Of a DNA stretch of 40,091 nucleotides, positions 1-37,812 are shown in pieces (the stretch's first letter is position 1; each line of letters begins with the position of its first letter). A program made the position numbers and the translations under genes. The notes beneath the pieces were generated by a model. The model saw only the letters and a list, made by a program, of their open reading frames with translations. It searched no databases and was not told the DNA's origin. The stretch comes from Escherichia phage SD6, in the sequence record PQ821641. One strand, written 5' to 3'.

Positions 1-97
1 ACTGACCTTAGCTACTGTAGTCAAGGACTTTAGGTAACACCTTAATAGAAGCTCACTTAGGGTCATCCTACTTATTGGTCTATCCTAGTGTCGCCTG

Positions 98-496
98 ACC
101 TACGGTCCTTGACCTACAGTGGCTGTGGCCTACAGTAGTGACGATGAGTTTTGGACCAAAAGTTTGAGACCACATCTCACAGTTCAAGAACCTCAAGTCT
201 CCCCATAGGCCCTCTTTAAGTCCAGACCAAAGGCCCTACCCGTTACTGCTCCTTGCAGTCACAGCCAGTCTATCATAAGGTTGGACCGATGGTCAAGACT
301 TCAGGTCAACGATAGGTTGAGGCTATGGCTGTAGGTCGGGACGATAGGTAGGGACTATGGGTCTTCTCTGAGTCTCTATCTGTATAGTGTTATAGTATAA
401 CATTACGTCCTACACCTACAGTCTCACTAACCTACAGTCTCACTAACCTACAGTCTCAACCATAAGACACCAACACCTACAGTCACAGACCTACAG
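98..496 (+). repeat. Left-end array of about 8 short direct repeats (core ACCTACAGT, including tandem CCTACAGTCTCACTAA units)
   Basis: Copies of ACCTAC(A/G)GT read at about 98, 112, 128, 413, 430, 445, 473 and 488; the position corresponds to the CCTAAAG-type repeat array near the T7 left end. Confidence 0.55.
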
Positions 497-608
497 TTAA
501 TAGACACAAAGCTATAGACTTAAGGTCAAAGACATGTTAGTCAAAGACTATATCCTCTTACACCATGGGGCCGACGATAGCTTAATCAATATTATTTAAG
601 ATTACCTA

Positions 609-639
609 TTGACTATATGTCTAGACTATGGCCTAATAG
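609..639 (+). promoter_or_regulatory. Host sigma70 early promoter, T7 A1-like
   Basis: TTGACT -35 followed by a 17-19 nt spacer and a TAATAG-like -10; the surrounding sequence resembles the T7 A1 region; the -10 is not unambiguous. Confidence 0.4.
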
Positions 640-749
640 CTTCCGTCAACACGACACGGCAACAACCGGATAGTGAAGACGCCGGGTCATCCCGGTTAAG
701 TAGACAGCCTGATAAGTCATACGAACAACAGGCAGATGACAGAAAGTAG

Positions 750-779
750 TTGACAAGCAGTAACGATAAGATGTAAGCT
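750..779 (+). promoter_or_regulatory. Host sigma70 early promoter, T7 A2/A3-like
   Basis: TTGACA at 750-755, 18-nt spacer, TAAGCT at 774-779, then gtaccacatcgaaac, which closely matches the sequence downstream of T7 A3; upstream CCGGTTAAGTAGACAGCCTGATAAGTC also matches the T7 early region. Confidence 0.55.
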
Positions 780-948
780 GTACCACATCGAAACAACGGT
801 GACGACCAACACTGAAATGGTCTACCTGAAGTCATCTGACTGAAGGGAATGCTCTTTAACAATCTGGATAAACTCTTAATGTGCGCCGATAGCTAGCTTG
901 CTAGCGATAGCGACTAACCACAGGGTCTTTGAGTCTACATCTGAAGGC

Positions 949-969
949 CCTGACTGATAGTCACTAACT
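949..969 (+). repeat. 21-bp element CCTGACTGATAGTCACTAACT, copy 1, just upstream of the first early ORF
   Basis: Exact 21-bp direct repeat of the element at 1265-1285. Confidence 0.5.
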
Positions 970-975
970 TAACGG

Positions 976-1176
976 ATGGACACTATGAAACACTTAAGCA
1001 CAATCACTAATCACTATGAAATATTCGTGGACACTAAAGGTTATGCGTGGATTCAGCTTAAAGAGATGAGAGGAGCGCGTCACCGTATGGTAGTGCGCAA
1101 GGTCTCAAGCAAGCCGTTTAGCAACTACAGCGTAGATACTGTGCGTATAGACAACGAGATCTACCTGATAGACTAA
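976..1176 (+). CDS. Hypothetical early protein (66 aa)
   Basis: First ORF after the host promoters, + strand; no recognisable family; not acidic like Ocr. Confidence 0.5.
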   Translation: MDTMKHLSTITNHYEIFVDTKGYAWIQLKEMRGARHRMVVRKVSSKPFSNYSVDTVRIDNEIYLID

Positions 1177-1264
1177 CAGATAACCGTGAGTCCTACAGCG
1201 AGCGCCTCAGCTCCTTATTTCGCTAACTGAAAGTGATTAACTACAGGTCGTTAACTAATAGCGG

Positions 1265-1285
1265 CCTGACTGATAGTCACTAACT
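1265..1285 (+). repeat. 21-bp element CCTGACTGATAGTCACTAACT, copy 2, followed by TATAGG
   Basis: Exact repeat of 949-969; here it runs into ACTATAGGA, a partial phage-promoter core. Confidence 0.5.
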
Positions 1286-1299
1286 ATAGGATAAACAAG

Positions 1300-1488
1300 A
1301 TGGCATACCGTAAGATGACCAAAGCAGAAGTGATAGCCGAAGTTCTTGAAACTTTCCGCGAGTTCCCTGAGACTTTCAGAGGCGATGACATAGCAAAACA
1401 GCAGTATTGGAATGACTACACAGACAGTCTCTGCAAGTCTGGCATGATTTCCAAACACCAGTATAACACTTGGTCAAACCCATTCTAA
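1300..1488 (+). CDS. Hypothetical early protein (62 aa)
   Basis: ATG with AGGA about 9 nt upstream; early-region position. Confidence 0.55.
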   Translation: MAYRKMTKAEVIAEVLETFREFPETFRGDDIAKQQYWNDYTDSLCKSGMISKHQYNTWSNPF

Positions 1489-1504
1489 CGTAAGGAATAT
1501 AACC

Positions 1505-2029
1505 ATGAAACTGATAGGCAAAGGCGCGTTCACTAAGTGCTACCTGAAGGATTGCGGGAAGCGTGTTCTTCTGGTCTCTTCTGACCCGATAAAGGAGTGT
1601 ATGGCGTGGGGATGGTTCCCTGAGTCTCCACTGTTCCCTGAAGTCAAAATGATTGAGGTAGGCACGTATGAGATGGACTACATGCCACCAACGCGAGGTC
1701 TCAAGGCGCATTTAGATGATGACCAATGGCAGCTCTATCAGGTGCTGCGTGATTGCTTCTCACGGTCTCCGGTATTCTCTCGACCTGCTGAATTGTATCA
1801 CAAGTGGTACGAGATATTCCAAGATGCACACGACAGGTCTGCGTCTGAGACTGTGCGGGAGGGCCTGATGGATGTGCTGATGGCTCTGGATGCTTGCGCT
1901 AACTTCGGGCCAGACATTCAGTTTGAGATAAGCCCACGAAATGTACGGGCTGTGAATGGTAAGCTGATACTAGTGGATTGTTTTTTCCTTATGTCCAAAC
2001 TGCAAGAGGTGAGGTCATCAAGATGGTAA
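1505..2029 (+). CDS. Putative protein kinase-like early protein (short gp0.7-like)
   Basis: 174 aa; N-terminal IGKGAFTKCY resembles a Gly-rich loop and C-terminal ISPRNV...LILVDCFF resembles catalytic-loop/DFG-like motifs; position matches T7 gene 0.7; function tentative. Confidence 0.55.
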   Translation: MKLIGKGAFTKCYLKDCGKRVLLVSSDPIKECMAWGWFPESPLFPEVKMIEVGTYEMDYMPPTRGLKAHLDDDQWQLYQVLRDCFSRSPVFSRPAELYHKWYEIFQDAHDRSASETVREGLMDVLMALDACANFGPDIQFEISPRNVRAVNGKLILVDCFFLMSKLQEVRSSRW

Positions 2030-2199
2030 CTTATGGTCTCTGCCAGCACCACGTCGCCAACGCCCGGCTTATGGTCAGGACCGGGCAGTTAAACCATGAT
2101 GCGACTATGCGTCTCCTGAAAGCGGTCTACGAGGGCCGCAAGCTCATACACGACGCTTACACGCTGAGGACAGGTAAACATGTACCAGATAACTTATAG
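2023..2199 (+). CDS. Hypothetical small early protein (58 aa)
   Basis: ATG at 2023 overlaps the upstream stop (ATGGTAA), suggesting translational coupling; the ORF track begins this frame at a TTG at 1978. Confidence 0.4.
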   Translation: MVTYGLCQHHVANARLMVRTGQLNHDATMRLLKAVYEGRKLIHDAYTLRTGKHVPDNL

Positions 2200-2305
2200 C
2201 AGTGAACAGGCGTTCTACGAGGGATGCTACGAGATGATGAAGCGCGGGGCTTGCTATGTGGCTAATCACCATAGCCTGACCATAACGCTGACAGGTGGAT
2301 ACTGA
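2180..2305 (+). CDS. Hypothetical small early protein (41 aa)
   Basis: ATG with GAGGA about 9 nt upstream; below the ORF-track size cut-off; weak call. Confidence 0.25.
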   Translation: MYQITYSSEQAFYEGCYEMMKRGACYVANHHSLTITLTGGY

Positions 2306-2376
2306 GCGATAGACGAGAGGTCATCTAACTGATAGGTGGCCTCAAAGATTATCACTTAAATTGATAGGAGTTAACT

Positions 2377-2481
2377 ATGAGCACTGCAATCATCTGGACT
2401 ATCTCAGGCTTCGTAGCGTGGGGAATGTTTACTCTAGTAGGCAAACTACCAGTACTTACTCAACTGTTATGGGGTTTATGA
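2377..2481 (+). CDS. Hypothetical small hydrophobic peptide (34 aa)
   Basis: AGGAG 6-7 nt upstream of the ATG; hydrophobic sequence MSTAIIWTISGFVAWGMFTLVG...; its stop overlaps the next start. Confidence 0.35.
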   Translation: MSTAIIWTISGFVAWGMFTLVGKLPVLTQLLWGL

Positions 2482-2681
2482 CTATGGATATCGCACTATT
2501 GATAGCCATAGGCTATGGACTTATAGTCTACGTGCTGGTGAGAGACATCAACAAAGCGCGTAAAGTCTACAAATTCAACTATGTACGTCTGGGTCGCTGG
2601 ACTGTGCGCCAACCTAACGGACAATTCGTGCGCAACTTAGCGAACGTCTGGGATATAGCAACACTTGGGAGCAAACTATAA
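2478..2681 (+). CDS. Hypothetical small membrane protein (67 aa)
   Basis: ATGA overlap with the upstream ORF; predicted transmembrane segment IALLIAIGYGLIVYVLV. Confidence 0.45.
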   Translation: MTMDIALLIAIGYGLIVYVLVRDINKARKVYKFNYVRLGRWTVRQPNGQFVRNLANVWDIATLGSKL

Positions 2682-3007
2682 TGAACAAGTCATACGGGAT
2701 CAATCTGGTACACTCTATGGACGCAGACATGCAAATGCTAAGCCTACTGGCTACCGGGTATCGTCACGGAACGTCAAGTCACTCCGCACGTCAACAGCAG
2801 GAGAGGGACCGGGTACTGCAAGCAAGACTCCGGGCTGAGGGACATAAGTCCGAACTGATGTGTCTGGCGTATGGTGGACGACCAATCGCCGACGATGGTA
2901 AACTTCTGGTCTCAGGCTGGAAGGCGATAGACCAACGGTCAACCCTCAAGCACACGACTCACGGTGACTTCAGTCATCTTCACGCTAACCCACTGATATG
3001 CAAGTAA
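2681..3007 (+). CDS. Hypothetical early protein (108 aa)
   Basis: TAATG overlap with the upstream ORF; no recognisable family. Confidence 0.5.
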   Translation: MNKSYGINLVHSMDADMQMLSLLATGYRHGTSSHSARQQQERDRVLQARLRAEGHKSELMCLAYGGRPIADDGKLLVSGWKAIDQRSTLKHTTHGDFSHLHANPLICK

Positions 3008-3014
3008 TTCTGAC

Positions 3015-3034
3015 TTAACTATCACTATAGGACT
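3015..3034 (+). promoter_or_regulatory. Phage-RNAP promoter-like sequence directly upstream of the RNAP gene
   Basis: TTAACTATCACTATAGGACT shares the upstream half with the promoters at 26425 and 39668 and the ACTATAGG core with all others. Confidence 0.5.
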
Positions 3035-3100
3035 CAAGGTCTAAGACTCCAAGTGAAAGACCAAAGAGACTCTAAGTGAAAGACTAATAACAAGGACTTT
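3031..3100 (+). promoter_or_regulatory. Possible RNase III processing site (R1-like) in the RNAP leader
   Basis: Contains the GACTCAAGGT motif shared with the other putative RNase III hairpins, plus internal repeats CTAAGACTCCAAGTGAAAGAC / CTCTAAGTGAAAGAC. Confidence 0.3.
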
Positions 3101-3104
3101 AAGT

Positions 3105-5786
3105 ATGAGCGTCATCTCTATTGACAAACACGACTTCTCTGATGTGTCGAACGCTATTGAGCCGTTCAACCTGCTGGCTGACCATTACGGGCAAGACCTT
3201 GCAGTCAAACAGCTTCAACTTGAGCATGAGGCATATAGTGAAGGCGAGCGACGTTTCATCAAGAACCTTGAGCGCCAGACAGAGCGCGGGGAACTGGCAG
3301 ACAATCAGGTCGCCAAGCCTTTGATGCAGACTCTGGTCCCTAAGATTGCGCAAGCCGTCAAGGAGTGGCATGAAGGTCCAGACGGGAAGCTGTCAACCTC
3401 TCGTCCTAGCGTAGCGTTCACCATGTTGAGCACTGAAGAGAAGGCCGTCAAGGACCGCTCTCTGCGTATCTCTTGCGAGTCTGCTGCAGTTATTATACTG
3501 AAGGTCATCCTCTCCAAGCTGGTCAAGCCTGAAGGGATACCGATTACACCGATGGCCTCAGCGATAGGTCGCACACTTGAGGACGAAATCCGATTCGGTC
3601 GCATCCGTGACAAGGAGAAGGAGCACTTCAAGAAGGCGATAGCTGAGAACCTGAACAAGCGAGCTGGGGCATCCTACAAGAAAGCCTACATGCAAGCGGT
3701 TGAGGCCTCCATGCTGGAGCAGGGCCAACTGGAAGATGCGTGGGGTACTTGGAGTCCGACCGAGGCGGTACACGTTGGAATCAAGATGCTTGAGATTGTC
3801 ATCCAGTCCACACAACTGGTCGAGCTTAAGCGTTATGGTGCTGGCAATGCAGCGGCTGATGTTGAGATGGTCCACCTGTCAGACTTCTGGGTCAAGAAGA
3901 TGGCACAACGAGGATTCAGCCTTGCGGGTATCGCTCCAGTCTACCAACCTTGCGTCGTTCCACCTAAGCCGTGGACTGGTGTCGTAGGCGGGGGGTATTG
4001 GGCCAAAGGACGCAGACCTCTACCACTGATTCGCTTAGGGTCTAAGTCTGCGGTGGCACGTTACGAAGACGTGTACATGCCTGAAGTCTATGACGCTGTG
4101 AATATCATCCAGAATACACCTTGGAAGGTGAACAAGAAGGTTCTGGACGTGGTGAACATGGTTGAGAAGTTGAACAACACGCCTATTGATGACATCCCTC
4201 AGATGGAGCCATTGAAGCCTGAAGACTATGCGGGTGAGACTGAAGAGGAGCTCAAGGCATGGAAGAAATCTGCTGCTGGTATCTACCGCCGAGAGAAGGC
4301 CCGGCAGTCACGCAGATTGTCACTGAGCTTTATCGTTAACCAAGCGAACAAGTTCTCTCAGTTCAAGGCCATCTGGTTCCCATACAACATGGACTGGCGC
4401 GGTCGAGTCTACGCTGTACCGATGTTCAACCCTCAGGGTAACGACATGCAGAAGGGTCTCCTTACTCTGGCAGTCGGTAAGCCTATTGGTGCTGATGGTT
4501 TCAAATGGCTGAAGGTCCACGGTGCAAACTGCGCGGGTGTCGATAAAGTCACCTTCGAGGAGCGAATCAAGTGGGTGGAAGACAACCACGACAATATCAT
4601 GTCTGCTGCTAAGGCACCGATGGATAGTATTGAGTGGTGGGGCAAGCTAGACTCTCCGTTCTGCTTCCTTGCGTTCTGCTTCGAGTATGCTGGCGTAATG
4701 CACCACGGCTTGTCTTACTCCTGCTCGCTGCCGATAGCGTTCGATGGGTCCTGCTCTGGGATTCAGCACTTCAGCGCGATGCTTCGTGACCACATTGGTG
4801 GACATGCAGTGAACCTGACGCCATCCGGTAAGGTCCAAGACATCTACCGCATCGTGTCTGATCGCATTGAGGAGGAGCTTAAAGTCCTGCTGGTTAACGG
4901 TACTGACAACGAGGTGGTTACCCACGAGGACAAGAAAACTGGTGAGATTACCGAGCGTATCAAGCTAGGGACACGAGAGCTGGCCCGTCAGTGGCTGACC
5001 TACGGTATGTCACGCAAGGTGACTAAGCGTTCGGTCATGACTCTGGCCTACGGGTCGAAAGAGTATGGCTTCGCAGACCAAGTTTACGAGGACATCGTGA
5101 TGCCAGCGATTGACTCAGGGTCTGGAGCTATGTTCACTGAACCAAGCCAAGCATCTCGCTTCATGGCTAAGATGATCTGGGAAGCTGTGAGTGTGACCGT
5201 AGTTGCTGCGGTTGACGCGATGAAGTGGCTTCAAGGTGCTGCCAAGCTGCTGGCTGCTGAAGTGAAGGACAAGAAGACTGGAGAAATCCTGAAGCCTTGC
5301 CTTCCGGTACACTGGGTCACACCTGATGGTTTCCCGGTCTGGCAGGAATACCGCAAGAAGGATACCACTCGTCTGAATCTGATGTTCTTAGGTTCATTCA
5401 ACCTTCAACCTACGGTCAACAAAGGCGCGAAGAAAGAGCTGGATAAGCACAAGCAGGAGTCAGGCATTAGCCCGAACTTCGTCCACTCACAAGATGGTAG
5501 CCACCTACGCAAGACTGTAGTCCACACTCATCGCAAGTATGGCGTGATGTCATTCGCAGTGATTCATGATAGCTTTGGGACCATCCCTGCTGACGCTGAG
5601 TATCTATTCCGTGGTGTCCGTGAGACGATGGTCGAGACCTACCGCGACAACGATGTGCTGCTTGACTTCTATGAGCAGTTCGAATACCAGCTTCATGAGA
5701 GTCAGCGCGACAAGTTACCTGAGCTTCCGAAGAAAGGTAAACTGAATATCGAAGACATCTTGTCTTCAGACTTTGCATTCGCTTAA
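3105..5786 (+). CDS. T7-type single-subunit DNA-directed RNA polymerase (gene 1)
   Basis: 893 aa, collinear with T7 RNAP from the N terminus (FSD...FN.LADHYG) to the C-terminal SDFAFA, including the PCVVPPKPWTG and IHDSFGT motifs. Confidence 0.98.
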   Translation: MSVISIDKHDFSDVSNAIEPFNLLADHYGQDLAVKQLQLEHEAYSEGERRFIKNLERQTERGELADNQVAKPLMQTLVPKIAQAVKEWHEGPDGKLSTSRPSVAFTMLSTEEKAVKDRSLRISCESAAVIILKVILSKLVKPEGIPITPMASAIGRTLEDEIRFGRIRDKEKEHFKKAIAENLNKRAGASYKKAYMQAVEASMLEQGQLEDAWGTWSPTEAVHVGIKMLEIVIQSTQLVELKRYGAGNAAADVEMVHLSDFWVKKMAQRGFSLAGIAPVYQPCVVPPKPWTGVVGGGYWAKGRRPLPLIRLGSKSAVARYEDVYMPEVYDAVNIIQNTPWKVNKKVLDVVNMVEKLNNTPIDDIPQMEPLKPEDYAGETEEELKAWKKSAAGIYRREKARQSRRLSLSFIVNQANKFSQFKAIWFPYNMDWRGRVYAVPMFNPQGNDMQKGLLTLAVGKPIGADGFKWLKVHGANCAGVDKVTFEERIKWVEDNHDNIMSAAKAPMDSIEWWGKLDSPFCFLAFCFEYAGVMHHGLSYSCSLPIAFDGSCSGIQHFSAMLRDHIGGHAVNLTPSGKVQDIYRIVSDRIEEELKVLLVNGTDNEVVTHEDKKTGEITERIKLGTRELARQWLTYGMSRKVTKRSVMTLAYGSKEYGFADQVYEDIVMPAIDSGSGAMFTEPSQASRFMAKMIWEAVSVTVVAAVDAMKWLQGAAKLLAAEVKDKKTGEILKPCLPVHWVTPDGFPVWQEYRKKDTTRLNLMFLGSFNLQPTVNKGAKKELDKHKQESGISPNFVHSQDGSHLRKTVVHTHRKYGVMSFAVIHDSFGTIPADAEYLFRGVRETMVETYRDNDVLLDFYEQFEYQLHESQRDKLPELPKKGKLNIEDILSSDFAFA

Positions 5787-5802
5787 CAACAGGAGAGACA
5801 AC

Positions 5803-6003
5803 ATGCAATTCGCACACCGTGTATCAAACGTATCTGGTGGCAACAAGGTAGTGACCGTAACCTCAGTGGCGGGCAAAGGTCTGGTCAAGGTGACTATGGT
5901 CCCGACTGGAACGGCTAAGGACAAAGGTATCAGCCATAAGGAGCTGATTCAGGTGATCCAGTGGGCACACGAGAAGGCCCTACGGGAAGAGGCAACCAAA
6001 TGA
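5803..6003 (+). CDS. Hypothetical protein (66 aa)
   Basis: ATG at 5803 with AGGAGA 6 nt upstream, immediately after the RNAP gene. Confidence 0.55.
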   Translation: MQFAHRVSNVSGGNKVVTVTSVAGKGLVKVTMVPTGTAKDKGISHKELIQVIQWAHEKALREEATK

Positions 6004-6077
6004 CAGACCTACAGTTACTGGCCTTGTGGCTGGGAGCACTAGCAGTATTCACTTTAATCCGACGCAGAAGAGGTTAA
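6000..6077 (+). CDS. Hypothetical small transmembrane peptide (25 aa)
   Basis: ATGA overlap with the upstream stop; hydrophobic core followed by RRRRG; weak call. Confidence 0.25.
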   Translation: MTDLQLLALWLGALAVFTLIRRRRG

Positions 6078-6100
6078 CCTAAACTATCACTATAGGATTA
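6078..6100 (+). promoter_or_regulatory. Phage promoter (phi1.1-like)
   Basis: CCTAAACTATCACTATAGGATTA matches the window-wide promoter consensus. Confidence 0.7.
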
Positions 6101-6145
6101 GACTCAAGGTCATGACTCAAAGTCGTGGCCTTCATGATTAACCCT
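6101..6145 (+). promoter_or_regulatory. Putative RNase III site (R1.1-like hairpin)
   Basis: GACTCAAGGTCAT...GTGGCCTTCATGATTA; AAGGUCA can pair with UGGCCUU; same architecture as the elements at 13588 and 37264; T7 has R1.1 at this position. Confidence 0.5.
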
Positions 6146-6171
6146 ATAACCTAAACAACTGGAGCTACAAC

Positions 6172-6351
6172 ATGTATCAGAACACTATCAACTTCGAGCG
6201 CATCCGTGAACGTCAGAAGACTGAAGGTTACATTCCGAAGGGCCGCAAGCTGAACAAGACCAAGCGTGGCGGCGGTGTCAAGGGTGCCTTCCGTAACGCT
6301 GAGGGTAAAGACTCTCTGGTTAACCAAGCGAAATACTTCGCAGGAGCATAA
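6172..6351 (+). CDS. gp1.1-like small basic protein
   Basis: 59 aa; contains KGRKLNKTKR, as in T7 gp1.1; correct syntenic position. Confidence 0.65.
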   Translation: MYQNTINFERIRERQKTEGYIPKGRKLNKTKRGGGVKGAFRNAEGKDSLVNQAKYFAGA

Positions 6352-6355
6352 TGAT

Positions 6356-6643
6356 ATGGGAATGTTCTCAAGAGCACATAGTGGAAACCTGAACACCCTG
6401 CGTAAAGCCATCCACAACTGGCAGTCCGAGACAGACTATAACGCAGTGGTCAGCACTTGGTTTGACACGGTGATGAACAGGCACTGCGTCCGGGCGGTTA
6501 TAGTCCACATTCATACACGAGAGGTCCTCATCGAGAAGGACTTCACGGACTACCCGAATATCCACGACGAAGATGTGCAGACAGTAGCGGTTGCCACTTG
6601 GTTTAACAAACAGTTCAACGACTACACTGGTCGATTCCTTTAA
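6356..6643 (+). CDS. gp1.2-like protein (putative host dGTPase inhibitor)
   Basis: 95 aa from ATG 6356 with AGGAG about 9 nt upstream; SGNL and HDEDV motifs as in T7 gp1.2; the ORF track extends this frame upstream from a GTG. Confidence 0.7.
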   Translation: MGMFSRAHSGNLNTLRKAIHNWQSETDYNAVVSTWFDTVMNRHCVRAVIVHIHTREVLIEKDFTDYPNIHDEDVQTVAVATWFNKQFNDYTGRFL

Positions 6644-6660
6644 TTCTGGAGACACTAACG

Positions 6661-7701
6661 ATGACAACTATCAAAACTAACCCGCACCGCGCTGTAGATT
6701 ACTCTGAGTCTGGCATTAAGAAGGCACTGGAAGCAGCCGGGTCTCTGGAAGCTGAAGTGAAGTATGATGGTGTCAGGTTGAATATTCCGGTGCTGCGAGA
6801 GGGTGAGACCTATTGGTTAAGCCGTGAGTCTAAACCGCTTCCAGCACTGGAGTGGATGAACTCTGAGTTAGGCAATGCGTGGACTCAAGCTGACTGGCGA
6901 TGGTTCCTGCGTCAAGCTGGGTACGAAGGCGTGGGCCTGATGATTGACGGAGAGGTCATGGTAAAAGGTGTTGACTTTAACACGTCTTCCGGTCTCATCC
7001 GAACGAAGTGGCTGAAGCCTAGCAACGAGGAGTTCGCTGAATGTTATCCGGGCCGTGGCAAGAAGGTCCCATTCTGGGTCGCACGGTCACTACTTCAGGT
7101 TGTGGTATATGGCGTTGTTGATATGACAACCATAGCAGACCCGAAAGCCGAAGGTCCTATCCATAGCGTAACCCGACTGAAGGCCGAAGCCATCGTCCCT
7201 CTCCTCCAGAAATACTTCCCGGAAATCGACTGGGTTCTGTCTGAGTCACACACGGTCTACGACCTTGAGTCGCTCAACTCCCTGTACGAAGAGAAGCGTC
7301 TTGAAGGACATGAGGGTCTGGTAGTCAAGGACCCGCTTGGTAAATACAAGCGTGGCAAGAAGTCAGGCATGTGGAAGATGAAGCCTGAGGAGACCATCGA
7401 CGGGACCGTGTGTGGACTCGTGTGGGGGACTCCGGGAAAGGCTAACGAAGGTAAGGTGATTGGCTTCGAGGTGCTGCTTGAGGATGGCATGATGGTTAAC
7501 GCCTGCGGTCTGACTGAAGAACAGAAGGATGAGTTTACGGAAGCCTGTAACACTGATACATATATTCTCGGTGGAATCAATCCATACGAAGGATGGCAGT
7601 GTGAAGTCCTCTTCATGGAGCGGTTCCCAGATGGTTCCCTTCGTCATCCTAGCTTCAAGTGCTGGCGTGGAACGGAAGACAATCCAACCGTTAAGAGTTA
7701 A
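6661..7701 (+). CDS. ATP-dependent DNA ligase (gene 1.3)
   Basis: 346 aa; T7-ligase-like IKTNP...KYDGVR (adenylation lysine), GEVMVKGVDFNTSSGL, EGHEGLVVKDP and GSLRHPSF motifs. Confidence 0.97.
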   Translation: MTTIKTNPHRAVDYSESGIKKALEAAGSLEAEVKYDGVRLNIPVLREGETYWLSRESKPLPALEWMNSELGNAWTQADWRWFLRQAGYEGVGLMIDGEVMVKGVDFNTSSGLIRTKWLKPSNEEFAECYPGRGKKVPFWVARSLLQVVVYGVVDMTTIADPKAEGPIHSVTRLKAEAIVPLLQKYFPEIDWVLSESHTVYDLESLNSLYEEKRLEGHEGLVVKDPLGKYKRGKKSGMWKMKPEETIDGTVCGLVWGTPGKANEGKVIGFEVLLEDGMMVNACGLTEEQKDEFTEACNTDTYILGGINPYEGWQCEVLFMERFPDGSLRHPSFKCWRGTEDNPTVKS

Positions 7702-11394: not shown

Positions 11395-11610
11395 ATGATT
11401 AAACTCATCGAATTTCTTGGTCGTCTGGTGGTGCGTGGCTATCGTCGTGCTGCGGTACTGGAACGAAAGGTAGAAAAGAAGACTGCTGACGGTGCGGCTG
11501 ATGCTGCTGCTCTGGCTGACAAGTTGGCCATCGCGTCACTGGAAGCTGGCATGAAGGCACGTCAAGCTGACACCAAAGCTGACCAGTTGGCTCAGTTCTT
11601 CAAAGACTAA
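11395..11610 (+). CDS. Hypothetical protein (71 aa)
   Basis: AAGGAG upstream of the ATG; Ala-rich, probably helical; lies between the lysozyme and primase genes. Confidence 0.6.
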   Translation: MIKLIEFLGRLVVRGYRRAAVLERKVEKKTADGAADAAALADKLAIASLEAGMKARQADTKADQLAQFFKD

Positions 11611-11626
11611 ACTATCACCTTAGGGA
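11607..11626 (+). promoter_or_regulatory. Phage promoter variant (ACCTTAGGG core) upstream of gene 4
   Basis: CTAAACTATCACCTTAGGGA differs from consensus at two core positions. Confidence 0.45.
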
Positions 11627-11675
11627 TGGGACCACGAGTCCTGTCCCTCTGTTCGCATTATTGATTAAGGAGTGA

Positions 11676-13379
<1,704 letters not shown>

Positions 13380-13420: not shown

Positions 13421-13585
13421 GTGCTAAAGAAACTTAAAGCTCGCTACCATCGGTTCATGTACAAATGGTGGAGCGATGAAGCAACCTGCCTGTCGAACAT
13501 TCTGGGAGACCAAAGGTTCGACTCTAAGGCATGGAAGAAAGCTAACCGGAAGTTTATGTATCACTTCTTGCGTACAGACTTCTAG
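13421..13585 (+). CDS. Hypothetical small protein (54 aa, GTG start)
   Basis: GGAGG about 6 nt upstream of a GTG; fills the gap between gene 4 and gene 5; weak call. Confidence 0.3.
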   Translation: MLKKLKARYHRFMYKWWSDEATCLSNILGDQRFDSKAWKKANRKFMYHFLRTDF

Positions 13586-13587
13586 GT

Positions 13588-13632
13588 CTAGACTCAAGGT
13601 CATTCACATCGAGTGGCCTTTATGATTAGACT
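13588..13632 (+). promoter_or_regulatory. Putative RNase III site (R4.7-like hairpin) upstream of the DNA polymerase gene
   Basis: TAGACTCAAGGTCAT-TCACATCGAG-TGGCCTTTATGATTAGACT, imperfect inverted repeat with the shared GACTCAAGGT motif. Confidence 0.5.
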
Positions 13633-13648
13633 AAACGGAGGATTAACC

Positions 13649-15820
13649 ATGTTTGACCTTAAGAGTATCTGGGGTTCTGACATCGAGACCAACGGTCTCC
13701 TTGATACAGTCTCCCAGTTTCACTGTGGGGTCCTGATTAACGCCGAGTCGAATGAGACCCTTAAGTATGGGGTAGCTCCGATGGTCGGTATCGTCGGCGG
13801 CTTCAAAGAGTATGTGCAGAAGGTGGAAGAGATTGCCGCATCACCTGATGGTATGCTGGTATTCCACAACGGTATCAACTATGACGTCCCGGCTATTGAC
13901 AAGCTGAAGCGTCTGTACTTTGGGAAACGATTTAACTTCCCGAAACACAAGATGATTGATACCTTGGTGCTGGGCCGCTTGATGTATCCCAACATTAAGT
14001 TCTCAGACATGGGTGCGGTGAAAGCTGGTCGTCTACCACCTAAGATGATGGGACGCCAGTCTCTTGAGGCTTGGGGCTATCGTCTAGGTGAGATGAAGGG
14101 TGAATACAAACACGATTACGTTGCCAAGTGCAAGGCCGAAGGTATCGAATATAAGTCTGGGGACGAATGGTTGTTCCCCTCTCAAGAGATGCTGGACTAT
14201 AACGTTCAAGACGTTGTGGTCACACTGGCGTTGTTCAAGAAGTTCCTGACTGACAAGTATTACTTCCAGTCTGAACAGTCCGCTTTCGAACAGATTTATG
14301 CGTTGCGCCTGGAACATGATGCTGCGTGGACCTGTGCGAAGATGGAGCGTAACGGCTATCCGATGAACACCGAGATGGTCGAAGGCTTATATCGTGAACT
14401 TACTGTCAAACGTGCGGAGTTGCTGGACAAGCTGCGCTCGACTTTCGGTAGCTGGTATGCACCAAAGGGAGGCAAGGAGTTCTTCAGGCATCCACGGACA
14501 GGTAAGGACCTTCCGAAGTATCCGAGAGTCGTGTATCCCAAGGTCGGTGGCATCTTTAAGAAGCCTAAGAACAAAGCTCAACGCTTAGGTCTTGAACCTT
14601 GTGAACTCGATACGCGAGACACGATGGAGGGAGCACCGTTCACGCCAATCACTTACGTTGAGTTTAATCCGGGAAGCGGAGATCACTTAGCGAAAGTCCT
14701 GATGGAGCGTGGGTGGGAGCCTGTGGACTTCACTGACACCGGGAAACCTGTAGTCGATGACGAGACGCTAGAACACGTTAAGTTACCAGACGCAGAGGCT
14801 CAGGCTTGCGTAGAGCTGGTCCGTGAGTATCTGGTAGTCCAGAAGCGCATCGGTCAGGCGGCTGAAGGTAAGAACGCATGGTTGAAACTTGTAGGTCCAG
14901 ACGGACGTATGCACGGTTCAATCAACCCATGCGGGGCAGTAACCGGACGTGCTACTCACAGTTCACCAAACATGGCTCAGGTCCCGGCTAACGGTGCTCC
15001 ATATGGTGAGACTTGCCGTGGTGCTTTCGGTGCAGCGTGGAACAAGAAGGATGGTAAGCCAGACCCTTGGATTCAAGTAGGTGTGGATGCCTCAGGTCTT
15101 GAGCTTCGTTGTCTGGGGAACCGAGCGGCTCCGTTTGATGGTGGTGCATATGCGAAGACTGTGGTCGAAGGTGACATCCACTGGGCCAACGCAGTCAACG
15201 CTGGGTTAGCACCTAACGTCCCACGCGATAAGTCGAACCACGACCATGAGGCTTTCCGTAACAACGCTAAGACGTTCATCTATGCGTTCCTGTACGGTGC
15301 AGGGGCCGCTAAGATTGGACTGATAGTCGGTGGCGGTAAGAAGGAAGGTTCAGCTCTCATGAAGAAATTCATTGAGGGTACACCAGCCATCAAAGACCTC
15401 AGGGAAGCTGTGAGTAATACGTTAATCTCAGACTCTAAGTGGGTGGACGGTGAGAACATCGTCAAGTGGAAACGCCGTTGGTTGCGTGGACTTGATGGTC
15501 GCCGTATCCACATCCGGTCGCCACACTCAGCACTTAACGCATTACTTCAAGGTGATGGTGCGGTAGTCTGTAAGCACTGGATGGTGCTGACGGAGAAGAA
15601 ACTTGAGGAAGCTGGCTACGGTAACGGCTGGGATGGTGACTTTGCGTTAATGGCTTGGATTCACGACGAATTACAGATTGCGTGTCGTACTCAGAAGATA
15701 GCCGAAGATGTCGTCCGTATTGCACAAGAGGCAATGCGCGAGGTAGGGCGCTTCTATAACTTCAAGTGTGAGCTTGATACGGAGGGTAAGATTGGACCAA
15801 CGTGGAAAGAATGTCACTGA
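13649..15820 (+). CDS. DNA polymerase (gene 5, family A)
   Basis: Collinear with T7 gp5 (SDIETN exonuclease motif, RQSLEAWGYRLGEMKGEYK, NAKTFIYAFLYGAG, WIHDE); ATG 13649 with GGAGG upstream is preferred over the ORF-track start at 13613. Confidence 0.97.
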   Translation: MFDLKSIWGSDIETNGLLDTVSQFHCGVLINAESNETLKYGVAPMVGIVGGFKEYVQKVEEIAASPDGMLVFHNGINYDVPAIDKLKRLYFGKRFNFPKHKMIDTLVLGRLMYPNIKFSDMGAVKAGRLPPKMMGRQSLEAWGYRLGEMKGEYKHDYVAKCKAEGIEYKSGDEWLFPSQEMLDYNVQDVVVTLALFKKFLTDKYYFQSEQSAFEQIYALRLEHDAAWTCAKMERNGYPMNTEMVEGLYRELTVKRAELLDKLRSTFGSWYAPKGGKEFFRHPRTGKDLPKYPRVVYPKVGGIFKKPKNKAQRLGLEPCELDTRDTMEGAPFTPITYVEFNPGSGDHLAKVLMERGWEPVDFTDTGKPVVDDETLEHVKLPDAEAQACVELVREYLVVQKRIGQAAEGKNAWLKLVGPDGRMHGSINPCGAVTGRATHSSPNMAQVPANGAPYGETCRGAFGAAWNKKDGKPDPWIQVGVDASGLELRCLGNRAAPFDGGAYAKTVVEGDIHWANAVNAGLAPNVPRDKSNHDHEAFRNNAKTFIYAFLYGAGAAKIGLIVGGGKKEGSALMKKFIEGTPAIKDLREAVSNTLISDSKWVDGENIVKWKRRWLRGLDGRRIHIRSPHSALNALLQGDGAVVCKHWMVLTEKKLEEAGYGNGWDGDFALMAWIHDELQIACRTQKIAEDVVRIAQEAMREVGRFYNFKCELDTEGKIGPTWKECH

Positions 15821-26424: not shown

Positions 26425-26447
26425 CCTTAACTATCACTATAGGGACT
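26425..26447 (+). promoter_or_regulatory. Phage promoter (phi13-like)
   Basis: CCTTAACTATCACTATAGGGACT. Confidence 0.7.
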
Positions 26448-26476
26448 ATAGGCCCTTAAGGTTATAAGGAGCCTTT

Positions 26477-36806: not shown

Positions 36807-37001
36807 ATGATTGAGTTAGACTTCAAGAATGAGGTCCTTAAAGCCTCTCCTATCGTCGGGACCGCTGCGGCTGATGGTGCCAGTCGGTTCTTCTTCGGAC
36901 TTACACTGAACGAATGGTTCTACGTTGCAGCTATAGCGTACACCGTTGTCCAGATTGGTGTGCTAGTCTACAAAACGATTAAAGGAGGTGGTAAAACATG
37001 A
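36807..37001 (+). CDS. Class II holin (gene 17.5)
   Basis: 64 aa; KA.PIVGT..AD...R.FFGL.LNEWFYVAAIAYTVVQIG nearly identical to T7 gp17.5. Confidence 0.85.
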   Translation: MIELDFKNEVLKASPIVGTAAADGASRFFFGLTLNEWFYVAAIAYTVVQIGVLVYKTIKGGGKT

Positions 37002-37261
37002 CGCAGATGGACTTAGAGAAGTTCCTCTTAATGCTAGATACTGAACGTGCTCGACTCATGCTGCAAGACCTGCGGGATGACTCTAAGCGTTCACCTCAGC
37101 TTTACAACGCCATTGAGAAGCTACTGGCTCGTCACAACTTCGTGCTAAGCAAGGTGTCTGTTGACGAGAAGACGCTCGCTGATATGGAGGCCCTGAACGC
37201 AGAGTACGATAAGGTGCTTTCAGCGACTGAGGATAATGACACCGGGTATGGCGTTCAATAA
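36998..37261 (+). CDS. Terminase small subunit / DNA maturation protein A (gene 18)
   Basis: 87 aa; RSPQLYNAIEKLLARHNF as in T7 gp18; start overlaps the holin stop. Confidence 0.85.
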   Translation: MTQMDLEKFLLMLDTERARLMLQDLRDDSKRSPQLYNAIEKLLARHNFVLSKVSVDEKTLADMEALNAEYDKVLSATEDNDTGYGVQ

Positions 37262-37263
37262 GT

Positions 37264-37312
37264 GTTAGACTCAAGGTCATTACTATGTGTAGTGGCCTTT
37301 ATGGTTAACACT
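37264..37312 (+). promoter_or_regulatory. Putative RNase III site (R18.5-like hairpin)
   Basis: GTGTTAGACTCAAGGTCAT-TACTATGTGT-AGTGGCCTTTATGGTTAACAC; outer GUGUUA/UAACAC and inner AAGGUCA/UGGCCUU can pair. Confidence 0.5.
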
Positions 37313-37362
37313 AACTAGTGGAGGAGACTCTACGTGAGATCTGATAAACCGGGAGGGCAACT

Positions 37363-37812
37363 ATGCTCGAATTTTTAAAGAGAGCGGCTCCGTGGTTACT
37401 TGCAGCAGTGATGTTTGCTGGTGGCTACCACACCGCTAACAATAAGTGGGAGGCTAAGGTCAATGCAGAATACACCTCGAATCTTAAGGCATCGGAAGAT
37501 ACAAGGCTTGCTGTCCAAGCTGAAGTCAGCAAAGTGTCCAAACGGTTTCAGGACGAAATGTCCTCGCTGGAAGGCAGCACTGATAGGATTATTGCTGACC
37601 TCCAGTCTGACAATAAGCGGCTGCGCATCCGAGTCAAACCCACGAGTGGAACCACGCAAAGTGACGGTCGATGCATCGTTGATGGTTACGCCGAACTTGA
37701 CGAACGAGATGCTAAACGTCTTATCGCCATCGGACTGAAAGGAGACAAGTGGATTAAGGCACTTCAGGACACTGTGAGAGCCTTACAGCAAGATAAGGAG
37801 GTGACGCATTGA
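37363..37812 (+). CDS. Rz-like i-spanin (gene 18.5)
   Basis: 149 aa; N-terminal transmembrane segment [12 protein letters not shown] then a charged helical region; GGGAGGG upstream. Confidence 0.85.
37463..37738 (+). CDS. Rz1-like o-spanin lipoprotein (gene 18.7), embedded in the +1 frame of the Rz gene
   Basis: [25 protein letters not shown] lipobox matching T7 gp18.7 [25 protein letters not shown]; the long N-terminal extension from ATG 37463 matches T7. Confidence 0.7.
   Translation: MQNTPRILRHRKIQGLLSKLKSAKCPNGFRTKCPRWKAALIGLLLTSSLTISGCASESNPRVEPRKVTVDASLMVTPNLTNEMLNVLSPSD

Follow-up and report, generated by a model that had tools for sequence, protein, structure and literature searches.

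Ahead of each of the first two early open reading frames (ORFs) of Escherichia phage SD6 (record PQ821641), the same 21 base pairs are found, letter for letter, and the question raised by this locus is what such a repeat is. The initial annotation suggested that it could be an operator, represent a variant class of promoter, or serve in RNA processing or translation control. We analysed the repeat within the window, by which we mean the whole stretch of 40,091 nucleotides. The two 21-bp copies are, with high probability, the 3′ strands of paralogous T7-type RNase III processing sites located in the early (class I) unit. Such processing hairpins are commonplace and have long been known in T7-group phages; the feature is thus a well-known kind of element and not a new promoter or operator class.

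Genome context and early promoter

The genome in the window is that of a Kayfunavirus, a K1F-like member of the T7 family. Its first 3 kb matches hundreds of Autographiviridae genomes, the best of which are Kayfunavirus phages with E. coli, Salmonella, Citrobacter, Enterobacter and Cronobacter as hosts. A single-subunit RNA polymerase gene occupies positions 3105–5786, so that 600–3100 constitutes the early region, which the host polymerase transcribes. An ORF in this region (1505–2029) encodes a kinase-like protein of 174 aa. A putative host-type early promoter, including GTACCACA, was located by eye, with T7 A3 as the reference (Table 1); a simple sigma-70 consensus scan of 400–3200 did not call it. 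From a start near A787, transcripts would run into the first of the hairpins described below. The consensus scan found no promoter inside the hairpins, and 400–3200 contains no terminator-like sites.

An exact repeat precedes two early ORFs

The repeat, CCTGACTGATAGTCACTAACT, is an exact 21-mer present in two copies on the + strand of the 40-kb window. Both the exact match search and 100 dinucleotide shuffles, in which 0.00 matches are expected by chance, bear out the direct repeat reported at 949–969 and 1265–1285; there is no third copy in the window, even when up to three mismatches are allowed, and independent repeat detection in the window returns the identical pair (family D4). The ORF starts assigned to the two copies, 976 and 1300, are both listed there, but the likely true start of the first ORF is 985. 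Its homologue is annotated from the second ATG, corresponding to window position 985, in the records of K1F (AM084414) and KM02, and from the equivalent of 976 in the record of Vec13. If 985 is the start, both start codons are found 14–15 nt 3′ of the repeat.

Both copies are 3′ strands of two-helix hairpins

RNA folding revealed that each repeat copy is the 3′ strand of a two-helix hairpin of ~55 nt, interrupted by an asymmetric internal loop. Contrary to the initial statement, hairpins do account for the repeat, each copy making up the 3′ half of one. In site 1, the lower helix is built by 908–916 paired with 958–966, with one mismatch (C911/A963), followed by an internal loop (917–920 and 953–957) and an upper helix (921–932 with 940–952). 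Site 2 has a lower helix of 1232–1239 paired with 1274–1281, an internal loop formed by 1240–1243 and 1269–1273, and an upper helix (1244–1253 with 1259–1268) closed by an apical loop at 1254–1258. Together with a third early hairpin, which has a different 3′ arm, these folds, computed on 905–970, 1229–1285 and 2303–2362, share with T7 R0.3, R0.5 and R1 the layout of helix, 4/5-nt loop and helix, and the helices of ~9–10 bp on each side of the asymmetric loop are those of T7-group RNase III sites. The resemblance extends to the primary sequence, where T7 R0.3 GCCCTTTATGATATTCACTAA aligns with GCCCTGACTGATAGTCACTAA of the window.

Table 1. Coordinates of the features of the window discussed in the text. 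R1 and R2 scores refer to the two covariance models.
Feature	Position	Strand	Description
Putative host-type early promoter, T7 A3-like	750–787	+	-35 TTGACA 750–755; -10 TAAGCT 774–779; probable start A787
First early RNase III-type hairpin (site 1), R0.3-like	906–970	+	Fold z = -4.0; model R1 61.1 bits; model R2 30.0 bits, E = 4e-4
Repeat copy 1	949–969	+	Last 4 nt of upper-helix 3′ strand, loop 3′ side ACUGA, lower-helix 3′ strand, 3 unpaired nt
Predicted RNase III scissile bond, site 1	955–956	+	Between U955 and G956; predicted from alignment columns
First early ORF, K1F gp0.2 homologue	976–1176	+	Likely true start ATG 985; PHROG 10124 (family without assigned function)
Second early RNase III-type hairpin (site 2)	1229–1286	+	Fold z = -6.0; model R1 77.4 bits; model R2 43.5 bits, E = 5e-7
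Repeat copy 2	1265–1285	+	Structural role identical to copy 1
Predicted RNase III scissile bond, site 2	1271–1272	+	Between U1271 and G1272; predicted from the same alignment column
Shine-Dalgarno AGGA of ORF 1300–1488	1288–1291	+	Supplies the GGA of the promoter-like core ACTATAGGA
Second early ORF, 62 aa	1300–1488	+	PHROG 336 (family without assigned function)
Third early RNase III-type hairpin (site 3)	2302–2361	+	Different 3′ arm CCUCAAAGAUUAUCACUU; predicted cut between A2346 and G2347; model R2 37.8 bits
R1.1-like hairpin	6091–6150	+	Just 3′ of the RNA polymerase gene, overlaps phage promoter 6078–6100; model R2 45.5 bits
R4.7-like hairpin	13581–13637	+	Gap after 566-aa ORF (11679–13379); model R2 47.2 bits
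R18.5-like hairpin	37258–37317	+	Between 87-aa ORF (36998–37261) and 149-aa ORF (37363–37812); model R2 56.2 bits, E = 1e-9

A family of six sites in the window

Two covariance models were used to define the family. Model R1 was seeded with 12 hairpins, three from the window, three from T7 and six from relatives, and model R2, built to remove circularity, with eight T7/T3 sites only. In the 40-kb window, model R1 detects six sites and model R2 the same six, every one of them on the + strand. For model R2, E-values range from 1e-9 to 4e-4, and no further match appears in the window at E ≤ 1. In the T3 record NC_003298, five stem-loops (R0.3, R0.5, R1, R1.1 and R1.3) bear the label ‘RNase III recognition site’. 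All five were recovered by model R1, as were T7 R1.1 and R1.3, although none of these had been part of its seed, and the 7-kb T7 and T3 stretches hold no other + strand match to this model. A point against membership is that site 1 reaches only 30 bits with the T7/T3-only model.

The sites of the window occupy intergenic positions 3′ of promoters, on the strand that is transcribed, and are in synteny with T7; the early ones precede the first, the second and a later early gene. The four that lie beyond the repeat copies sit at the positions of T7 R0.5, R1.1, R4.7 and R18.5. Around the R4.7-like hairpin, which at its 3′ end runs into the GTG listed as the start (13613) of a 735-aa ORF (13613–15820), the 566-aa and 735-aa ORFs would be gene 4- and gene 5-like, judged by size and position only; likewise, the 87-aa and 149-aa ORFs are probably gene 18- and gene 18.5-like, given their position upstream of a 587-aa ORF. 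Unlike T7 and T3, the window contains no R1-type site before the RNA polymerase gene. A scan of positions 1–7000 against Rfam 15 at E ≤ 10 gave two chance-level matches only (E = 6.6 and 9.1), and Rfam is without a family matching these sites.

Covariation and strand bias point to an RNA element

An exact 21-bp repeat placed immediately upstream of two genes could also act at the level of duplex DNA, as an operator for a protein of the host or the phage. Covariation was analysed in a set of 46 distinct hairpins, drawn from 14 other loci in addition to the window and T7. Standard pairs occupy 97.2% of cells, and double changes are seen in 14 of the 18 pairs. When partner columns were slid by 1–3 positions, only 26–47% of cells remained paired and 4–6 pairs were compensated; the observed covariation values were reached in none of 500 shuffles. 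This alignment was fitted to the model; when the hairpins were aligned independently with MAFFT, compensation was seen in 10 of the 18 pairs. A further set was assembled from the hairpins found by the T7/T3-only model that carry the downstream 14-mer TGATAGTCACTAAC, a selection that left the upstream part of the 3′ arm free. That part is nearly invariant, with one substitution among 30 distinct hairpins, and the 5′ arm alternates between C and U where its partner is G or A.

In ~130 kb, 52–55 family members were counted, every one of them on the transcribed strand. One-strand occurrence, combined with the covariation of pairs, is the signature of an RNA element and not of a DNA operator. The operator reading also has to contend with a 21-mer that lacks dyad symmetry of its own, with variation that obeys RNA pairing rules, G-U pairs included, and with the location of the repeat downstream of promoters instead of at them; we regard it as extremely unlikely.

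The partial promoter core at copy 2 is coincidental

Ten phage promoters share the 23-bp consensus (A/C)CT(A/T)AACTATCACTATAGG(A/G) and score 34–38 bits (30.6–36.4 bits in a leave-one-out test), with an eleventh at 24 bits. As the initial annotation stated, ACTATAGGA continues from copy 2, at 1283–1291. The overlapping AACTATAGG (1282–1290) fits eight of the nine promoter-core bases, and the position of copy 2 ranks 32nd out of 80,138 under the promoter matrix, which favours a variant promoter for the phage RNA polymerase, at least at copy 2, where the repeat runs into this core. Scored as a phage promoter, copy 2 (1272–1294) reaches only -1.75 bits against the 34–38 bits of the ten, and the best position near copy 1 gives -17.9 bits. 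The upstream specificity region of copy 2 has no match to the phage promoters. Furthermore, the T of the core varies in relatives, which carry TAAAGGA or CAAAGGA or have the whole core replaced, while the 20-mer of the repeat stays constant. On this evidence, there is hardly any chance that the repeat is a promoter.

The equivalent leader in relatives reads CTAAAGGATAAACAAGATG or CCAAAGGATAAACAAGATG and is wholly replaced in K1F, Vec13 and others. Across TATAGGA, TAAAGGA and CAAAGGA, relatives keep AGGA while the preceding T changes; the core at copy 2 varies because it overlaps the Shine-Dalgarno sequence, and its likeness to a promoter is coincidental. Of the options initially listed for the repeat, then, the promoter fails and the operator is unlikely, whereas RNA processing is strongly supported, with sequence, structure, strand and position all matching the T7/T3 sites.

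Predicted cleavage and recognition features

The scissile bonds of the window are predicted by transfer from T7, in which cuts were reportedly placed by Dunn and Studier in 1983 at positions 890, 1468, 3138 and 5887. These four cuts share one column of the model alignments: the U before GAU or AGG, which is found two nucleotides beyond the last stacked position in the 3′ direction. The feature tables of the T7 records list no RNase III sites; the coincidence of the cuts on a single column supports both the reported coordinates and the transfer to the window. For the three later sites of the window, processed 5′ ends are predicted near 6135, 13623 and 37302.

Site recognition was read against PMC1540722, which describes a proximal box of four pairs near the cut, numbered from 1 (farthest) to 4 (adjacent), and a two-pair distal box higher in the helix. 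In both sites, the proximal box consists of G-C, A-U, C-G and A/A at positions 1 to 4. The inhibitory G-C at position 2 is absent, and A/A replaces the catalysis-blocking G-C at position 4; the C-G at position 3 is also found in T7 R1 and T3 R1, and the minimal substrate prefers A-U there (PMC1540722). The distal box is canonical in site 2 (U-G then U-A) and non-canonical in site 1 (U-A/U-A). The recognition pairs are, overall, those of an RNase III site, by rules that come from a minimal substrate and are indicative only.

A processing pathway can be proposed on this basis. Host RNA polymerase would start at the early promoters (~600–790) and synthesize one long RNA, in which each intergenic hairpin would fold into two helices of ~9–10 bp with the 4/5-nt internal loop between them. 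Host RNase III would cut once, on the 3′ side of the loop, at the bonds predicted in Table 1. The upstream message would retain a protective 3′ hairpin, and the downstream message, judging from the sequence, would open with a common leader, GAUAGUCACUAAC, 28–29 nt before the start codon. Restriction of cutting to one strand by the internal loop, leaving a protective 3′ hairpin, has been described (PMC1540722). Because T7 grows without RNase III (PMC6938266), the benefit of processing is expected to be quantitative and not essential. A literature search pairing K1F or Kayfunavirus with RNase III returned no relevant report, nor any mapped transcript ends or cleavage assays. The strand on which the repeat resides explains why it is exact, since that strand supplies the cut site, the pairs beside the scissile bond and one side of the lower helix all together; exchange between sites has probably homogenised the repeat as well.

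The hairpins may instead be real structured RNAs with a main role other than cleavage, namely a 3′ stabiliser, a binding-only RNase III site or a translation-control leader. Structure and covariation fit any RNA-level role equally well, binding-competent but uncleaved RNase III sites exist (PMC1540722), and a full-length fold of 1175–1300 pairs GUCCUA (1190–1195) with the Shine-Dalgarno region. This reading is improbable, given that the hairpins closely resemble cleaved T7 sites, down to the internal loop and the cut-adjacent pairs. As for translation control, the Shine-Dalgarno sequences are part of the downstream modules, which vary, and not of the repeat, and accessibility calculations show no consistent effect of cleavage. 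In ViennaRNA partition functions, the unpaired probability of the Shine-Dalgarno sequence changes upon cutting from 0.44 to 0.62 in site 1 and from 0.34–0.57 to 0.66 in site 2, and falls from 0.38 to 0.09 in site 3, with the cut placed one nucleotide off. As these changes are inconsistent, we make no claim of translational activation.

Hairpins coincide with joints between gene cassettes

A search in related phages, proposed along with the repeat, found it conserved in relatives and not absent. The 20-mer is invariant across Kayfunavirus genomes, which carry one to three copies each; it is present in K1F, with two copies, and in more than 100 phage records, among which Vec13 has three. The second hairpin occurs in at least 127 phage records, including those of T3-like, Przondovirus, Pantoea, Hafnia and Aeromonas phages. 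In the records of Kayfunavirus relatives that were examined, an RNase III-site annotation is absent.

The BLAST matches of relatives to 860–1320 stop at 968/969 or 1284/1285 with striking regularity, and homology breakpoints were located at 949, 968/969, 1229/1232, 1265, 1284/1285 and 2301/2302. Other breakpoints fall at ordinary gene boundaries, too (e.g., 2022, 2168–2178, 2481 and 2684). Three relatives illustrate the pattern. Citrobacter phage SH5 aligns to 729–969 with 74% identity and to 1265–2380 with 92%, so that identity jumps across the repeat, and it lacks exactly 970–1264, one repeat unit. Vec13 has an extra gene and hairpin between the first site and gp0.2, and its two alignments overlap on 949–968. 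Collinearity with K1F extends as far as 1284, beyond which K1F has ocr in place of the window sequence. Across 32 distinct instances, the 20-mer is positioned upstream of eight different genes: gp0.2, the MAYRK protein, ocr, two MIY-starting genes (one of them a SAM hydrolase), and MKIIAMNEE, MKLIGKGAF and MRLNKATAE. Most combinations of these eight downstream genes with four upper-helix variants are seen.

Breakpoints at the ends of the repeat and the variety of genes downstream of it identify the hairpins as joints between exchangeable cassettes made of leader, gene and hairpin. We propose, tentatively and at somewhat less than an even chance, that the hairpins of Kayfunavirus, and probably of other Studiervirinae, also act as portable homology patches for the gain, loss and exchange of early genes (ocr, SAM hydrolase and others), with the invariance of the 20-nt 3′ arm partly kept by recurrent recombination. 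The hairpins may drive these exchanges or may simply persist through them.

The same data could be taken further, to a repeat that is only a recombination scar or linker, either a duplication that arose upon insertion of the gp0.2 cassette or a homology patch for shuffling, with no role as RNA. SH5 equals the window minus exactly one repeat unit, the third copy of Vec13 accompanies an extra gene, and the homology of relatives ends at the 3′ ends of the two copies. Against this stand the single copies upstream of many genes without any duplication, the constant occurrence on the transcribed strand with RNA base-pair covariation, the homology to known T7/T3 processing sites, and a cassette that encodes no transposase or nuclease. 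A scar alone is therefore highly improbable, and a linker role would more plausibly come on top of RNA processing than take its place. The 316-bp unit was also considered as a mobile element and rejected: its ORFs have no Pfam matches and fall only into PHROG families that lack an assigned function. Used as a query for related loci, gp0.2 found four viral contigs only.

Implications

With processing as the preferred reading, an unexplained repeat becomes six predicted RNA-processing sites, and a working covariance model is now available for a class of element that is absent from Rfam and left unannotated in the records of K1F-like relatives examined. The result also predicts the real 5′ and 3′ ends of early messages. 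In phage engineering and in therapy, where K1F-like phages serve against E. coli K1, the hairpins mark natural insulated gene slots in the early region, with the caveat that two or three identical 20–21-bp repeats can delete the genes between them, in this case a 316-bp unit with gp0.2. From an evolutionary viewpoint, the data suggest how early genes in the ocr and SAM hydrolase slots may be reshuffled in the subfamily. It is the cassette-joint aspect that is the part worth following up.

Comparison with known systems

T7 holds ten RNase III sites (PMC6938266). T7 R0.3, R0.5, R1 and R1.1 resemble the sites of the window in having a two-helix hairpin, a 4/5-nt loop and the core CAGG/AAGG...CCU(N4)GAU(N2)UCACU; the T7 early sites are likewise found on the same strand, between genes and downstream of early promoters, with syntenic late counterparts. 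There are also differences. The 3′ side of the loop is ACUGA in the window and UUAUG in T7, and the C-G pair below the loop is found in T7 only in R1. The window sites serve different genes, mostly without assigned function, and two of them share an identical 21-nt 3′ arm. Finally, the window is devoid of a site before gene 1, and its cleavage is predicted only. T3 R0.3, R0.5, R1, R1.1 and R1.3 share the architecture of the window sites, and the T3-like Yersinia phage phiYe-F10 has a hairpin 86.5% identical to 1232–1283.

A second comparison is with the promoter-early stem-loops (PeSLs) of T4-type phages, through which modular shuffling takes place (PMC2839356, PMC4122927). Like the hairpins described here, PeSLs are short conserved motifs repeated between small, non-essential early genes, and in both cases the motif bounds insertions, deletions and replacements between close relatives. 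In contrast, a PeSL consists of a sigma-70 promoter and a terminator, and the window hairpins contain neither. We know of no mini-circles or other recombination intermediates for RNase III hairpins. If the hairpins do act as homology patches, they would be the T7-group counterpart of the T4-type PeSLs, in which a processing site takes the place of the promoter-terminator pair.

Coding changes around the early hairpins

The first early ORF of the window (976-1176), which codes for the gp0.2 homologue, is closed by a TAA (1174-1176) that is a sense codon, TCA or TCG, in all relatives examined. In these phages, the frame continues for a further 16 codons, staying open to a TAA at window 1222-1224, 8 nt 5' of the second early hairpin, and the window gp0.2 homologue is therefore C-terminally truncated. 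To judge from the relatives' reading frame, window 1177-1224 is one-time coding sequence of this gene. A second coding change was seen in GA2A (L015, 1103-1140) and in an ST31-like contig (L006, 3291-3347), in which the leader is fused straight to the early gene named MKLIGKGAF after its N-terminal residues, as ATAGGATAAACAAG-ATG or AAAGGATAAACAAG-ATG (compare window 1286-1302 with 1489-1507). ORF 1300-1488 is thus missing from start codon to start codon, with the breakpoint at the ATG and not at a hairpin.

Hairpin classes and their spread

The third early hairpin (window 2302-2361), like the first two a predicted T7-type RNase III site, has homologues at seven other loci (L002, L005, L008, L009, L013, L015 and L016). 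In this class, the 5' arm, GAGTGATAGACGAGAGG, is nearly constant and the 3' arm is variable (GATTATCACTTAAAT, GATTACCACTTACAT or ...GCAT), a reversal of the arm conservation pattern of the class whose 3' arm carries the 21-bp repeat. The T3-like Yersinia phage phiYe-F10 (L010), which belongs to a different genus (Teetrevirus), has at 1858-1915 a hairpin that shares 86.5% identity with window 1232-1283, although its early region is otherwise unrelated. This points either to a deeply conserved hairpin or to one that has itself passed from one genus to another. The insertion that abuts the first early hairpin duplicates GATAGC and forms a small separate stem-loop (GCUAGC-UUGC...); K1F and all other relatives examined have GCCGATAGCGACTAAC at this place, without the insertion.

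Features of the window discussed in the text
Feature	Position	Remarks
16-nt tandem repeat	407-454	among left-end direct repeats
18-nt insertion, TAGCTTGCTAGCGATAGC	890-907	directly 5' of first early hairpin
174-aa early ORF	1505-2029	PHROG 11084
Phage promoter	3013-3035	full strength, 34.3 bits; about 70 nt upstream of RNA polymerase gene
Eleventh promoter-like site	11606-11628 (within 11596-11628)	weaker, 24.2 bits; CACCTTAGG core
Tandem promoter core, CACTATAGGGACTATAGG	26435-26452	

At the left end, window 95-497 holds several short direct repeats based on ACCTACAGT(CTCACTA), families D1-D3 and D8, which are probably part of the region that forms the terminal repeat or serves packaging in T7-like genomes.

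Comparison with T7 and T3

The 174-aa ORF gave no match in a Pfam search, and BLASTP detected no similarity between its product and T7 gp0.7. Across 38 homologues, a GKGAFT glycine loop, K30, an E-x-S-P-R-N motif and D158 are all invariant. The AlphaFold model (pLDDT 96.5) matched almost exclusively protein-kinase-like folds in the PDB (APH(2''), Rio2, CDK2, choline kinase), at the weak level of E = 1e-3 and a TM of about 0.4. The product may be a minimal kinase, in the slot held in T7 and T3 by the kinase gp0.7, a stimulator of RNase III (PMC4858673). Ahead of gene 1, the RNA polymerase gene, no RNase III-type hairpin was found in the window (2362-3104 region), and K1F likewise has none; the window carries a phage promoter there, whereas T7 and T3 have R1 and host promoter C.
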